DNA of 58,414 nucleotides from Patescibacteria group bacterium. GTDB taxonomy: Bacteria > Patescibacteriota > Microgenomatia > UBA1406 > HO2-37-13b. The stretch's first letter is position 1. Each line of letters starts with the position of its first letter. This document shows positions 4,022-29,449 of the stretch, one piece after another. The stretch is taken from assembly GCA_035289305.1 (NCBI GenBank), contig DATDXN010000015.1, forward strand, positions 1 to 58,414, written 5' to 3'. The notes beneath the pieces were generated by a model. The model had not been told where the DNA came from and did not search any database. It was given only the letters and a program-made list of their open reading frames with translations. The translations under genes and the position numbers were made by a program.

Positions 4022-5056
4022 ATGATAGATACACAAAAAATAAAAAAATTAGACACTGCAGACGTGTATTCATCTATCAAACAACTACCTCATCAAATAG
4101 AACAAGCCATGAAAGACGTAGAAAGAATAGCCTACCCAGAAAAATATAGAGATGCCGAAAACATCGCCATATCCGGTATGGGTGGCTCTATTTATAATTA
4201 CTATGTTATTTCCTCTCTTTTTACGCGTGAGCTGCACAAGCCCATCATAGCGGTAAATGGATATGAGCTTCCCGCATATATGAAGGCAAAAACACTGTTT
4301 GTCGGCTCTTCATATTCAGGAAGTACCGAGGAAACGATTGCCTCAACGACCGATGCCATCAAGCAAAACCTATTGGTTACTGCTTTAACCACAGGAGGAA
4401 AATTGGGTGAATTGATGAAGTTTCATGATCTTCCTTTTTATCAATTTACACCTCATTTTAATCCCTGTGGTCAGCCCAGAGTAGGTGTGGGTTATATGAT
4501 TTTTGGTGCTATTTTCATACTCTCACATTTGGGACTTCTTCATCTTGATATTGCTGCGGTGCACAGTGCTATTACTACCCTCAAAAATAATGATGCACGC
4601 ATACAAGAAAAAGCATATAAGCTCAAAAATCAGATGAAAGATACCATTATTATCTTCGTCGGATCAGAACATGTAAGCGGTGTGGTACACGCAGCGCGCA
4701 ATCAGATCAATGAAACAGCAAAAGCGTTTGCACAATATCACCTCATTCCCGAGCTCAATCATCATCTGATGGAAGGACTCACCTACCCGAAGGATAAAAA
4801 ACTTACCTTTGTGTTCTATAATTCCCACCTTTATCATGGGAGAAATAGAAAACGCTATGACGTCACGAAAAAAGTGCTTGATAAACAAGGTGTTCCTTAT
4901 ATTGATGTATCGCTTGAGGGGAAAAATAAACTTGAGGAGTTTTTGCTCTATCTTCAGTTGAGCTCATATCTTTCATTCTTCCTCGGCATCGACTACGGTG
5001 TTGACCCCTCTCAAATCCAGTGGGTAGATTATTTCAAAAAAGAGCTTGCAAAATGA
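4022..5056 (+). CDS. Bifunctional phosphoglucose/phosphomannose isomerase (SIS domains)
   Basis: SGMGGS, SYSGSTEET, NQINETAK and PELNHH motifs; AGGAGG SD upstream. Confidence 0.88.
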   Translation: MIDTQKIKKLDTADVYSSIKQLPHQIEQAMKDVERIAYPEKYRDAENIAISGMGGSIYNYYVISSLFTRELHKPIIAVNGYELPAYMKAKTLFVGSSYSGSTEETIASTTDAIKQNLLVTALTTGGKLGELMKFHDLPFYQFTPHFNPCGQPRVGVGYMIFGAIFILSHLGLLHLDIAAVHSAITTLKNNDARIQEKAYKLKNQMKDTIIIFVGSEHVSGVVHAARNQINETAKAFAQYHLIPELNHHLMEGLTYPKDKKLTFVFYNSHLYHGRNRKRYDVTKKVLDKQGVPYIDVSLEGKNKLEEFLLYLQLSSYLSFFLGIDYGVDPSQIQWVDYFKKELAK

Positions 5057-5065
5057 TAATCTATT

Positions 5066-5134
5066 TCAACTTTAATTATTTAATAAATTAAAGTCGTTTG
5101 TTACAAAGTTCCGAATGAGGATAATGCATACTGT
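5066..5134 (+). repeat. 69-bp dispersed intergenic element, copy A
   Basis: Gapless 54/69 match to the reverse complement of 29381-29449; contains the ACTTTAATT-N8-AATTAAAGT inverted repeat. Confidence 0.8.
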
Positions 5135-5146
5135 ATTAAATGACCA

Positions 5147-5175
5147 TTGACTTTTTTCCATAACTTATATACCAT
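5147..5175 (+). promoter_or_regulatory. Sigma70-type promoter TTGACT-N17-TACCAT
   Basis: Consensus-like hexamers with 17-bp spacing, 6 nt before the ATG at 5182. Confidence 0.55.
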
Positions 5176-5181
5176 AAAAAT

Positions 5182-5937
5182 ATGGACCACCAGGATCGTT
5201 CCCATGCATCACCATCATTTATCAATATATTTGTACTCCTCTTGTTTGCGGCTGTCATTGCGTTTGCGTCGTCTGTAGGAACATATATGTACATGACTTC
5301 GCAAAAAAATCAAGAGTCACCAACCAATCAACCTCTTGTAATTCCTCAAACCGCTGTTTCACCGACTTCTACATCGGCTAATCCGATAACGACTTCAGAT
5401 GAAACGGCGAATTGGAAAACATATACAAATAATCGCTATGGCTATAATATTAAATATCCAGCAAACTGGTTTGTTAGCACAAAATATTCTGAAATGGATT
5501 TTACAAGGCGCGGTGGTTATGATGTTGGCATTACTTATTATGGTGGAGATACCGCCTGGTCAAATTATCCTAAATTTGATTATACTCCACCCGATCCGCC
5601 ACCCTCTGATTCACAATTCATTGGTCTTATAATTCTTAAAACAGACCAATCTTTAGATGATTATTACAATTCAACATACAATGATCCTAATGACCCTGAA
5701 ACAAAAGTTCTTGAGAAAGAAAAATCTACTATTCAAGGTAAGGGATTATTAAAATTTACATATGTTAACTTTATTAATACACTTAAAACAAATAATCCTC
5801 AAGGTGCTAAGGCACGAAAAGCACTGGTAAAAATAAATAATGGGATCATGATCTTCAGTTATTCGATAGAAGAATACAAAAAAGATGAAAGCAAGATATT
5901 TGATTCTATGATAGATTCCTTGCGTTTTACACGATGA
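5182..5937 (+). CDS. Membrane-anchored hypothetical protein with a PsbP-like extracellular domain
   Basis: One N-terminal TM helix, S/T/P-rich linker, WKTYTNNRYGYNIKYPANW motif and FDSMIDSLRF C-terminus. Confidence 0.75.
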   Translation: MDHQDRSHASPSFINIFVLLLFAAVIAFASSVGTYMYMTSQKNQESPTNQPLVIPQTAVSPTSTSANPITTSDETANWKTYTNNRYGYNIKYPANWFVSTKYSEMDFTRRGGYDVGITYYGGDTAWSNYPKFDYTPPDPPPSDSQFIGLIILKTDQSLDDYYNSTYNDPNDPETKVLEKEKSTIQGKGLLKFTYVNFINTLKTNNPQGAKARKALVKINNGIMIFSYSIEEYKKDESKIFDSMIDSLRFTR

Positions 5938-13968: not shown

Positions 13969-14654
13969 GATGCTCTTATAACAACGGCAAGTTCACCTTT
14001 ATATGTATAATTGAGTAATTCATGTGCTTTTCCGCGTATGACTTCTTCAAATTTCTTCGTCATCTCGCGACAAATACAAATTTCATTGTTTGGTAAAACC
14101 TCATCAATTATTGTTAATGTGTGATTAATTCGATGCGGCGACTCATAAAATACGACGGTCAGATCGATTAACATTTTACCCATAGACTTTAATTTGTTAA
14201 TTAATTGAAGTAATTGAAATTGTTTCTTGGGAAGAAAACCTAAAAAAAGAAGATTTTTTGTCGAAAAACCCGAAAGTACACATGCGTTTACAAACGCAGT
14301 TGGGCCGGGTATGACCGTGTAGGAGATATTCTCTTTAACTGCGCAAGTTAAAAGTAACGATCCGGGATCGCAGACTGTTGGCATGCCTGACTCTGAAACA
14401 AGAGCAATATTTTTGTCTTCCTGTAGGAGATTTAAAACCTGAGGCAACAGTTCAAATTCATTTTCTTTGTGGAAATGAATGATTTTCTGCGATTTTTGTG
14501 GGTGAAGATTAAAAAGTTCCTGTATGTTTTTATAGAAACTATCAAAGCTTTGAGCGTCCTCAACAAGAATAATATCTACATGCACCAAGGCTTTCACCAT
14601 ACGCATACTTGCATCTTGCATGTTTCCAATGGGTGTTCCTACTATATAAAACAT
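13965..14654 (-). CDS. rsmI: 16S rRNA (cytidine-1402-2'-O)-methyltransferase
   Basis: YIVGTPIGN, SESGMPTVCDPG, IPGP, FYESPHR and CREMTKKFEE motifs; true start at 14654. Confidence 0.88.
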   Translation of the reverse strand: MFYIVGTPIGNMQDASMRMVKALVHVDIILVEDAQSFDSFYKNIQELFNLHPQKSQKIIHFHKENEFELLPQVLNLLQEDKNIALVSESGMPTVCDPGSLLLTCAVKENISYTVIPGPTAFVNACVLSGFSTKNLLFLGFLPKKQFQLLQLINKLKSMGKMLIDLTVVFYESPHRINHTLTIIDEVLPNNEICICREMTKKFEEVIRGKAHELLNYTYKGELAVVIRAS

Positions 14655-23381: not shown

Positions 23382-24728
23382 ATGTATAAAAAGATACGAT
23401 ATTACTATTGGTTGATATTCTCTTTTCTCAAAAAAAACTTTAAACTTCTCTTTTTAAACTTCGTCATTGGTTTCTTTCTTGTTATCCTATTTGCCAGTTT
23501 TTTTCCATTGGTGAACTCATTCATTTTTTCAAAAGTTGAAAAAATAGGAGTGGTTGGAACCTATGATCTCACCAATTTACCGGGAGAAATACAGGAGGCA
23601 ATATCCAATCCCCTTCTATCGTTAAGTGACAAAGGGGAAATCACGCCTGTTCTTATTTCCTCATATGAAATCCTTGATGGTAATAAAATCTATCGCCTTC
23701 GCCTCAAGTCAGATATTCGCTGGTCAGACGGAGAAAAATTCACTGCTTATGATATCAATCTCAATTTTAAAGGGATAGAAACAAAAGTCATCGACGAGAC
23801 GACGATAGAATTTAGATTAAAACAGCCGCTTTCTATTTTTCCAATATATCTGACCAAGCCGCTTATTAAAGATGAAAAAATTGGTGTTGCGGGATTATAC
23901 ACGTTTGGCGAATATAAACTTCAGGAAGGCCATTTGGTAAACGTACAACTTTACCCACAAAAAAAGACCTTTCCGAAACGGAGTTATCACTTTTATGATA
24001 CGGAAAACAAGCTTATCAATGCGTACAAAAAAGGCAGTGTAAATTTTATACGCACGCCAAAGGTAAAAATTGTAGAACAATTTTCGCCATGGAAAAACAC
24101 AACCATCACAAAAGAGGTAAATTATCGACAAATGATGACTCTTTTTTTTGATACAAAAAAAGATGTACTTTCGTCAAAGGAGACTCGTGAGGCCATTGTG
24201 TGGTCAGTGCCCTATTTTGAGGAGTATGGAGAACGGGCAAAAGGGCCAATACCACCCTTTTCATGGGCGTATTTTAAGGATCTTAAATCATATACACCAA
24301 ATCCTCTCAAAACAAAAGATTTTTTCAAAAAAGACTCAAGTGATGAAAAACGTACAGAACTCAACTTTTATACGTTTTACGATTATCTTGAGGTAGCGGA
24401 GCAGATAAAGAAAAATCTGGAGGGGGCGGGACTCACAATTAATCTTAAAGTGCTTTCGTACCTTCCACAAGACTTTGATCTGCTTTTGACGGTATGGAAT
24501 CCACCGCCTGATCCAGATCAGTATTACTTCTGGCACTCCACCCAAAGGACAGGAAATATCACCAACTATAAAAACGTCAGAGTCGATAAACTACTTGAGG
24601 ATGGGCGAAAAACTCTGAATGTCGATGATAGGCGAAAGATATATATAGAATTTCAAAAAAACATCGTCCAGGACCTTCCCGCTCATTTCATGTACTATCC
24701 GTATGTATATACGATACGGAAGAAATGA
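23382..24728 (+). CDS. ABC transporter substrate-binding protein, family 5 (peptide/nickel-like)
   Basis: N-terminal TM anchor, RWSDGEKFTAYD, DPDQYYFWHS and VDKLLEDGR motifs. Confidence 0.85.
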   Translation: MYKKIRYYYWLIFSFLKKNFKLLFLNFVIGFFLVILFASFFPLVNSFIFSKVEKIGVVGTYDLTNLPGEIQEAISNPLLSLSDKGEITPVLISSYEILDGNKIYRLRLKSDIRWSDGEKFTAYDINLNFKGIETKVIDETTIEFRLKQPLSIFPIYLTKPLIKDEKIGVAGLYTFGEYKLQEGHLVNVQLYPQKKTFPKRSYHFYDTENKLINAYKKGSVNFIRTPKVKIVEQFSPWKNTTITKEVNYRQMMTLFFDTKKDVLSSKETREAIVWSVPYFEEYGERAKGPIPPFSWAYFKDLKSYTPNPLKTKDFFKKDSSDEKRTELNFYTFYDYLEVAEQIKKNLEGAGLTINLKVLSYLPQDFDLLLTVWNPPPDPDQYYFWHSTQRTGNITNYKNVRVDKLLEDGRKTLNVDDRRKIYIEFQKNIVQDLPAHFMYYPYVYTIRKK

Positions 24729-24751
24729 TATAATTCTAATGTGTGTAAGCC

Positions 24752-24837
24752 GCCGCGGTGGTGGAACTGGCAGACACGCAGGACTTAAAATTCTGTAGCC
24801 TTTACCGGCTGTGAGGGTTCGACTCCCTCCCGCGGCA
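24752..24837 (+). tRNA. tRNA-Leu(TAA)
   Basis: Acceptor gccgcgg/ccgcggc, anticodon arm cagga-cttaaaa-ttctg, long variable arm, GTTCGA T-loop. Confidence 0.95.
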
Positions 24838-24920
24838 CACATAAGTCGTTAGTCTTGCGTCATGTGTCGTGAGACCTTTATCAATTTGATACAATATAAG
24901 ATAAGAGTCGTAGCTGTTTT

Positions 24921-26106: not shown

Positions 26107-29053
<2,947 letters not shown>

Positions 29054-29137
29054 AAGAAAGAAGCATTTAATAATGCTTCAAAAAAATAAAACTTATGCGA
29101 TCTACCTAAAAAAATACACCGTTTTGTCAAAGTGCAG

Positions 29138-29210
29138 TGGACCCAAGGAGATTTGAACTCCCAACCTCCGGTATGCAAAACCGGCGCGCTAGCCATTGCG
29201 CCATGGGCCC
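29138..29210 (-). tRNA. tRNA-Ala(TGC)
   Basis: Acceptor gggccca/tgggtcc, anticodon arm ccggt-tttgcat-accgg. Confidence 0.95.
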
Positions 29211-29352: not shown

Positions 29353-29381
29353 ATACTAACAAAATCATCCTCAAAAGTCAA
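29353..29381 (-). promoter_or_regulatory. Promoter of the tRNA-Ala/23S unit, TTGACT-N17-TAGTAT
   Basis: Near-consensus hexamers with 17-bp spacing, about 140 nt upstream of tRNA-Ala. Confidence 0.7.
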
Positions 29382-29449
29382 CAGTTTTTGCTATTTTCAT
29401 TTGGAGCTTTACGACCAACGAATTTAATTTATTAAATAATTAAAGTCGA
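29381..29449 (-). repeat. 69-bp dispersed intergenic element, copy B
   Basis: Gapless 54/69 match to 5066-5134; abuts the -35 box of the rRNA promoter. Confidence 0.8.

Follow-up and report, generated by a model that had tools for sequence, protein, structure and literature searches.

A dispersed 26-bp palindrome in a Roizmanbacteria-like genome: a candidate operator of TrpR-like proteins

Introduction

The described systems that most resemble the element reported here are the operators of TrpR-family repressors. HisR (YerC) proteins recognize 20-bp palindromes with the common consensus cacTTTAnnnnnnTAAAgtg, and about half of hisR genes are autoregulated, while TrpR itself uses GNACT half-sites with 8-bp spacing (PMC9413887). 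Escherichia coli TrpR, a dimeric helix-turn-helix repressor that autoregulates at its own promoter, has three known operators (trp, aroH and trpR), all located at promoters. The 8-bp register of TrpR sites permits tandem dimers. Two other kinds of dispersed palindrome invite comparison: REP elements, short extragenic sequences that occur in hundreds of copies, often at gene 3' ends, and that bracket the RAYT gene encoding their presumed recognition protein; and parS, a 16-bp palindrome of the TGTTNCACGTGAAACA type that clusters near the origin of replication.

Almost nothing is known about gene regulation in bacteria of the candidate phyla radiation, which cannot be cultivated alone. Here we analyze a palindrome found in a 58,414-nt stretch of DNA (contig DATDXN010000015.1, or C15; hereafter 'the window') from a Roizmanbacteria-like genome whose assembly comprises 897 kb in 36 contigs and is 92.6% complete. 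A preliminary description of the window had reported a 69-bp repeat at two places 24 kb apart, each between a stop codon and a TTGACT promoter, and had listed as possible explanations a protein-binding site (for an activator or an insulator), a terminator combined with an UP element, a recombination site and a mobile-element scar.

Results

A 26-bp palindrome lies at the core of the repeat

The two copies of the repeat, A (5066-5134, + strand) and B (29449-29381, - strand), align without gaps at 54/69 positions by hand count, in three successive blocks of 2/3, 25/26 and 27/40. A 24-mer within them, ACTTTAATTATTTAATAAATTAAA, is shared without mismatch between 5069-5092 and 29423-29446 and found no match in 100 shuffles. 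Copy A contains a perfect 9-N8-9 inverted repeat and copy B the same repeat with one mismatch (AAATT for AAAGT), as previously described, and direct reading of both loci bore out the order stop codon, element, TTGACT. What did not hold was the 69-bp length: the conserved unit is a 26-bp palindrome, ACTTYAATT-N8-AATTRAAGT, whose dyad symmetry falls within the range of about 20-34 bp expected of TrpR/YerC-like operators of the bracketed Microgenomates type, and similarity extends into the flank only in A and B and, partly, in a copy on another contig (C31:18669).

The promoter-facing 40-nt flanks of A and B are far more alike (27/40) than the average of 180 flank pairs (mean 11.2 identities, sd 3.2), and the next-best likeness to A/B is that of C31:18669 (20/40 and 17/40). 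Spacer A carries about 13 additional nucleotides (ATTAAATGACCAT) ahead of TTGACT relative to spacer B, and once a gap of about 13 nt is allowed the likeness continues into TTGACTTTT; the palindrome ends 52 nt from the -35 box at A and 39 nt from it at B. Because flank likeness is limited to A and B, and weakly C31:18669, the 69-bp repeat is best described as a member of a 26-bp family together with a promoter run-up. Feature coordinates are collected in Table 1. In a search for empty sites, the contigs compared, which come from seven independent metagenome assemblies of the same population, all carried an identical copy A.

Table 1. Coordinates of the palindrome family and of associated features. 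Positions without a contig prefix refer to the window.
Feature	Coordinates	Strand	Remarks
Palindrome copy A	5069..5094		ACTTTAATTATTTAATAAATTAAAGT; 12 nt past the stop of a PGI-like gene
Spacer, palindrome A to its -35 box	5095..5146	+	first 40 nt 27/40 identical to the B spacer
Promoter-like TTGACT-17-TACCAT	5147..5175	+	TTGACT 5147-5152, TACCAT 5170-5175; consensus match only
Third window copy	14186..14211		ACTTTAATTTGTTAATTAATTGAAGT; 744-nt gap between an acetyl-CoA-synthetase-like gene and uvrB
Promoter-like TTGACT-17-TAGTAT	29353..29381	-	TTGACT 29381-29376, TAGTAT 29358-29353; upstream of the tRNA-Ala/23S unit
Spacer, palindrome B to its -35 box	29382..29420	-	39 nt; homologous to the A spacer
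Palindrome copy B	29421..29446		ACTTTAATTATTTAATAAATTAAATT on the - strand; one arm mismatch
All ten genomic copies	C2:3850, C11:35640, C15:5069, C15:14186, C15:29421, C16:31195, C26:85663, C30:31497, C31:18669, C31:24138		
Palindromes of other TrpR-like paralogues in G041			ATATCGATATTTTAAAATATCGATAT, 9 genomic copies; ATAAAATGTTATATAACATTTTAT, 6; ATTCCAATTAATTAATCAATTAATTAATTGGAAT, 3

The PGI-like gene upstream of copy A ends at a stop codon at 5056. The gene that follows promoter A starts with an ATG at 5182. Its 251-aa product has a weak PsbP-like match and, as judged from the sequence, a hydrophobic stretch at the N terminus. The TACCAT -10-like box at 5170-5175 ends only 6 nt ahead of this ATG (window 5170-5184), which suggests a leaderless or near-leaderless mRNA for the PsbP-like gene. 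Copy B lies 55 nt past the stop codon (29502) of a CDP-alcohol phosphatidyltransferase gene, and its promoter is followed on the - strand by tRNA-Ala (29210-29137) and 23S rRNA (29045-26113). This 23S rRNA unit (26113-29210, - strand) has tRNA-Ala and a promoter of its own in front of it, with no 16S upstream. The tRNA-Ala/23S arrangement is common to 29/29 relatives (L160-L188), many of which carry a conserved CACCTCGTTTGCAACGAGGGG hairpin upstream of tRNA-Ala; at the position equivalent to copy B, no conserved palindrome is shared among the 29.

Ten intergenic copies in one genome

A search of the whole genome, as the preliminary description had proposed, recovered ten copies with ≤2 mismatches to ACTTTAATT-N8-AATTAAAGT, three of them in the window; the third of these had escaped the earlier description. 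Shuffled genomes gave no match at ≤2 mismatches (their 17-32 matches carry up to 4), and at 4 mismatches the genome showed no excess over shuffles. The consensus of the ten copies is ACTTyAATTwATTAAwTAATTrAAGT, worth about 46 bits uncorrected; the copy on C30 is palindromic over all 26 bp. Apart from the Y/R position, the outer arms hold a single mismatch across all ten; differences gather in the central 8 bp and at position 5. When position 5 is paired with its counterpart, position 22, two copies are changed on both sides, three on one side and five not at all.

By crude gene calls about 93% of this genome is coding, yet every one of the ten copies is intergenic. Each follows the 3' end of at least one gene, often with 4-23 nt between it and the stop. 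Convergent genes flank two of them: the C30 copy has dnaB on one side and a gene for a 682-aa protein on the other, and C31:24138 overlaps a stop codon. Divergent genes flank none of the ten. The convergent pair means that placement before a TTGACT promoter, as seen at A and B, is not general. Beyond the palindrome the copies are unrelated, apart from A and B and, weakly, C31:18669. A coherent regulon did not emerge either, as Pfam annotation of 24 flanking proteins returned unrelated functions: PGI, PsbP-like, acetyl-CoA-synthetase-like, UvrB, CDP-OH transferase, FemAB, aspartate kinase, BrnT toxin, MurD, DnaB, peptide deformylase (Def) and PMT-like membrane proteins.

The same genome contains other repeats. 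Several contig ends (C2:1-140, C24:8112-8252, C26:86189-86328 and C31:1-139) share a few repeats of about 140 bp, and many contigs end in a similar way; the probable cause is an insertion sequence present in several copies, at which the assembly breaks. An IS200/IS605-type TnpA gene (C16:103575-104151; 148 aa, PF01797 E = 6e-34) also lies at a contig end, surrounded by GC-rich 20-bp hairpins (CCCCGACGCAAGCGTCGGGG, CCTCGCAGCAAGCTGCGAGG) that recur at C8:4423-4442, C33:12141-12160 and C17:13597-13616.

The palindrome is retained at orthologous sites in Collierbacteria

Among 40 relatives from the same family and order, intergenic copies were confined to one genome, G012, which has three, all exact matches to ACTTCAATTATTTAAATAATTGAAGT; the other matches were intragenic. 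A scan of one genome per GTDB species returned 40 loci, mostly from two Candidatus Collierbacteria genomes (G041 and G042), and several copies per genome were found only in Microgenomates. G041 has 20 copies in 0.9 Mb, 16 of them perfect ACTTCAATTATTTAAATAATTGAAGT and four with 1-2 mismatches, and all 13 copies in G042 are perfect. We classified 36 intergenic contexts, comprising 33 exact copies (G041, G042, G012, G043 and G044) and three near-variants from other taxa: tandem arrangements account for 20 of them, and convergent and divergent ones for 8 each. Of 74 oriented flanks, 15 had a -10-like hexamer directly upstream, which is no enrichment over the background of 16.5%. Most solo copies accordingly have no fixed position relative to promoters.

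The two Collierbacteria genomes allowed us to compare sites across a species boundary. Their flanking genes are 65-87% identical in DNA (13-35% different), and for 9/13 sites in G042 the orthologous intergenic region of G041 also holds a copy. Over these nine pairs the palindrome is 231/234 identical (98.7%), whereas the 150 nt on each side are about 45% identical with gaps counted. Such near-identity amid diverged flanks indicates purifying selection on the palindrome in Collierbacteria, and the shared positions imply that the sites predate the species split and have been retained since. Occasional decayed copies with 1-2 mismatches at orthologous places argue against wholesale homogenization.

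A tenth G042 site (L036:1595-1620) nearly fills the gap between two co-directional genes; in the G041 orthologue (C5:364506-364624) a 30-bp insert, TCCCGCAGAGCAGGATCAGGCTTTGCCTGA, with a small GC hairpin interrupts the copy precisely at its midpoint (TTT|AAA). Palindrome centres may be a target for another tiny insertional element. Our genome, G012 and the related contig L145 share no copy positions.

The 13 copies on the 588-kb G041 contig C5 occupy two stretches, 36-187 kb and 506-572 kb, and are absent from 187-506 kb. As cumulative GC skew is lowest near 45 kb and highest near 550 kb, the copies are clustered around the putative origin and terminus.

TrpR-like genes bracketed by their own palindromes

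In G041, two palindrome copies bracket a gene for a 149-aa protein (C5:565118-565567) that belongs to the Pfam Trp_repressor family (PF01371, E = 1.2e-12) and whose closest PDB relatives are the TrpR-like structures 3KOR, 3FRW and 3G1C. The order of elements is TTGACT, 18 nt, TATAAT, 1 nt, palindrome, 3 nt, ATG, then after the stop codon 27 nt and the second palindrome; among the Collierbacteria 149-aa regulator genes this downstream copy lies 27-40 nt past the stop. In such cassettes the 5' UTR would be the palindrome itself, again suggesting leaderless or near-leaderless mRNA.

G041 encodes four paralogues of about 149 aa that are 42-52% identical, each bracketed by its own, different palindrome (Table 1). 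The two paralogues whose recognition helices resemble each other most (TVYTVKYWL and TVYTVKTWL) also have the palindromes that are closest in sequence (..TYCAATTAWTTAA..). At G041 C5:78226-78301 and 141242-141316, palindromes of two different TrpR-like paralogues (ACTTCAATT... and ATATCGATATTTTAAAATATCGATAT) lie 20-40 nt apart within one intergenic region; the same pairs occur in G042 (L034 and L037), where both palindromes are kept between the species and the intervening DNA is not.

The bracketed layout recurs in G012, G043, G042 and a Rifle-aquifer organism. Orthologues of the regulator in Hainich and Rifle groundwater (P0004, P0007 and P0011; 81-85% identical, 13 contigs) have differing gene neighborhoods, and in all of the orthologue contigs that we read the order promoter, palindrome, gene, palindrome is kept. 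In one orthologue the upstream copy carries ACTTTAATT, the T-type arm that is usual in our genome. Two Hainich contigs (L125 and L127) encode an identical TrpR-like protein. Their DNA is 100% identical between about codon 20 and a point 40 nt beyond the downstream palindrome but unrelated upstream of the promoter, a pattern that indicates recent recombination around the cassette. Cassette contigs are mostly shorter than 2 kb and several (L126, L131, L132 and L133) begin or end inside the 26-bp palindrome, so a regulator cassette is easily lost from genome bins.

No bracketed regulator in the present assembly

A tblastn search with the four paralogues and a six-frame PF01371 scan found no bracketed regulator in our assembly. 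The same scans identified a single Trp_repressor-family gene, a YerC-like gene of 105 aa on C21 (about 24545-24862), with no copy of the 26-bp element near it. This gene has its own, different single-copy 26-bp palindrome (ATACTAATATGTTAACATATTAGTAT, C21:24477-24502). It is followed after 5 nt by the -35 box of a TTGTCA-17-TATAGT promoter, and 6 nt separate the end of that promoter's -10 element from the ATG. The metagenome contigs carrying regulator orthologues were considered as a source of this organism's regulator and proved to be Collierbacteria-like instead. Scanning metagenomes for T-type palindromes with an ATG after them yielded four loci, none with a TrpR-like gene.

Elsewhere the pairing is also incomplete. 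The cassette is absent from the syntenic site in G042 (a 790-bp indel relative to G041) and from the rest of that assembly, and no orthologue of the bracketed regulator was detected in G012. Palindrome and bracketed regulator therefore co-occur in 1/4 genomes (ours, G041, G042 and G012), a figure partly excused by cassette contigs that break inside the palindrome, fall below 2 kb and drop from bins.

Comparison with described systems

The Collierbacteria bracketing gene belongs to the same Pfam family (PF01371) as Bacillus subtilis HisR (YerC), whose operators are likewise palindromic and whose autoregulation is frequent. The outer half-site ACTTTA/TAAAGT equals that of HisR, cacTTTA-N6-TAAAgtg (PMC9413887). 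The element differs in being 26 rather than 20 bp long, with ACT and AGT 20 nt apart rather than 12, a spacing difference of 8 bp. The palindrome can in fact be parsed as two HisR-type 18-mers, ACTTYA-N6-TAAATA and TATTTA-N6-TRAAGT, that overlap with an 8-bp offset. The Collierbacteria-type proteins are about 50 residues longer than HisR, with a conserved C-terminal tail. Unlike HisR sites, the element has a second copy past the stop codon and 10-20 dispersed copies unlinked to histidine genes, and our genome lacks the bracketed regulator gene.

E. coli TrpR is a member of the same Pfam family, and its half-sites contain ACT (PMC9413887); it is not known to have any counterpart to the letter-perfect conservation over 26 bp, the copy past the stop or the sites between convergent genes. 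REP elements share with the palindrome a dispersed extragenic location, frequent placement at gene 3' ends and the bracketing of a gene for a presumed recognition protein. The element, however, has no GTAG head and only 10-20 copies, and the gene that it brackets encodes a helix-turn-helix protein without HUH/Y1 motifs. A RAYT partner was considered and set aside: PF01797 (Y1_Tnp) genes occur in 33/41 relatives irrespective of the motif and are not flanked by it. In sequence the element is unrelated to the parS consensus; its copies in G041 do cluster near the extremes of GC skew.

Discussion

We consider it somewhat probable that the palindrome is a dispersed operator of a TrpR-like protein, which in our genome precedes, among other places, the tRNA-Ala/23S promoter and a promoter for a membrane protein. 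The protein-binding site, one of the options in the preliminary description, is favored because the palindrome, in Collierbacteria and in the metagenomic orthologue contigs read, brackets a Trp_repressor-family gene and occupies an operator position there, and because it is near letter-perfect at orthologous Collierbacteria sites with diverged flanks. We infer from these sequence comparisons the binding itself and the direction of any regulation, and also the identity of the binder in our genome, since the assembly is without the bracketed regulator. The 26-bp dyad-symmetric core would then belong with the operator palindromes of the expanded TrpR/YerC-like helix-turn-helix proteins in Microgenomates of the candidate phyla radiation. 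The overlap of two 18-mers with an 8-bp offset suggests that two dimers could lie side by side, perhaps aided by the extra 50 C-terminal residues. At A and B, a bound TrpR-like protein might modulate the downstream promoter from upstream or block read-through from the preceding gene, and a roadblock role would equally suit copies between convergent genes. Several points count against the operator reading: the assembly is without the bracketed regulator, palindrome and regulator co-occur in 1/4 genomes, most solo copies have no set position relative to a promoter, the neighboring genes make up no regulon, relatives share no palindrome ahead of tRNA-Ala/23S, and about 46 bits far exceeds what a transcription factor with 10-20 sites needs. 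On a bolder variant, which we regard as unlikely, the TrpR-like protein would be less a classical repressor of promoters than a genome-wide 'punctuation' factor whose tandem dimers, on letter-perfect sites where genes meet, insulate transcription units as a roadblock terminator or boundary in bacteria with no excess of canonical terminators. One such boundary site would precede the tRNA-Ala/23S promoter, and mobility or difficult assembly of the regulator gene would not prevent the sites from persisting and staying conserved.

The element might instead be a relic or selfish repeat spread by duplication or mobilization, either in the manner of REP/MITE elements or as the residue of regulator cassettes that have since moved or disappeared, and without present function here because the cognate protein is gone. 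We judge this fairly unlikely, with evidence on both sides. The cognate gene is indeed absent from the assembly; A, B and partly C31:18669 are alike past the palindrome, as expected from copying of a larger segment; the cassette present in G041 is missing from the syntenic 790-bp indel site in G042; other small insertional palindrome families inhabit the same genome; and positions differ among our genome, G012 and L145. Yet the outer arms are near-invariant, with variation at position 5 and in the central 8 bp that looks like constraint rather than random decay, and the Collierbacteria sites are old and under purifying selection. Nor do the roughly 45 copies behave like a MITE: none has a target-site duplication or flanking direct repeat, and the sole candidate for an empty site, in G041, turned out to be a filled, interrupted copy. 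RAYT/Y1 transposase genes neither co-occur with the motif nor are flanked by it. Site-specific recombination, through a lox/FRT/dif/pdif-like core with inverted arms and an asymmetric 8-bp spacer or through an integron attC site, appears highly improbable. It would fit the 9-8-9 architecture with its variable, asymmetric centre in our genome, and one G041/G042 rearrangement breakpoint adjoins a copy. Active sites in 10-20 dispersed copies among essential genes would be hazardous, however; direct reading found no likeness to Xer arms or the attC core (GTTRRRY), no integrase gene was seen among the inspected neighbors, and the sites are stably syntenic between G041 and G042. Neither copy number nor sequence thus supports the dif/attC comparison that had been proposed earlier.

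A hairpin acting at the RNA level at gene ends, as a bidirectional terminator, a stabilizer of mRNA 3' ends or a processing site, seems quite improbable to us. Its appeal lies in location, since ten copies lie past gene 3' ends, often 4-23 nt from the stop, two of them between convergent genes, and one copy in each regulator cassette is always past the stop codon; moreover, the window has no excess of canonical GC-rich terminators (15 versus 16.1 expected). The predicted hairpins, however, are weak (-2 to -9.5 kcal/mol), consist entirely of A-U pairs and lack a U tract; on the transcribed strand, A and B fold at -5.5 and -7.1 kcal/mol, respectively (z-scores -1.9 and -1.7). The terminator of the preliminary description, an A-U stem of -5.5 to -9.5 kcal/mol with no U tract, is correspondingly a weak option. 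Structure alone would not require one sequence at 26 positions across genera, and changes at position 5 are uncoordinated between the arms, two of the three single changes creating a C-A mismatch on the transcribed strand; compensatory change at positions 5 and 22 was rejected, as the counts fit independence. Further, 8/36 classified intergenic contexts are divergent, and neither A nor B had an Rfam match at the gathering threshold or at E <= 1.

There is also a practical warning: assemblies break inside these palindromes, and metagenome bins can easily lose the regulator cassettes that contain them. The window contributes the persistence of such sites as 'orphans' in a genome bin without the regulator gene and the position of one of them just upstream of a ribosomal RNA promoter. 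A regulator family with its own long, readily recognized site beside every paralogue would give a readable regulator-to-site code for these bacteria.
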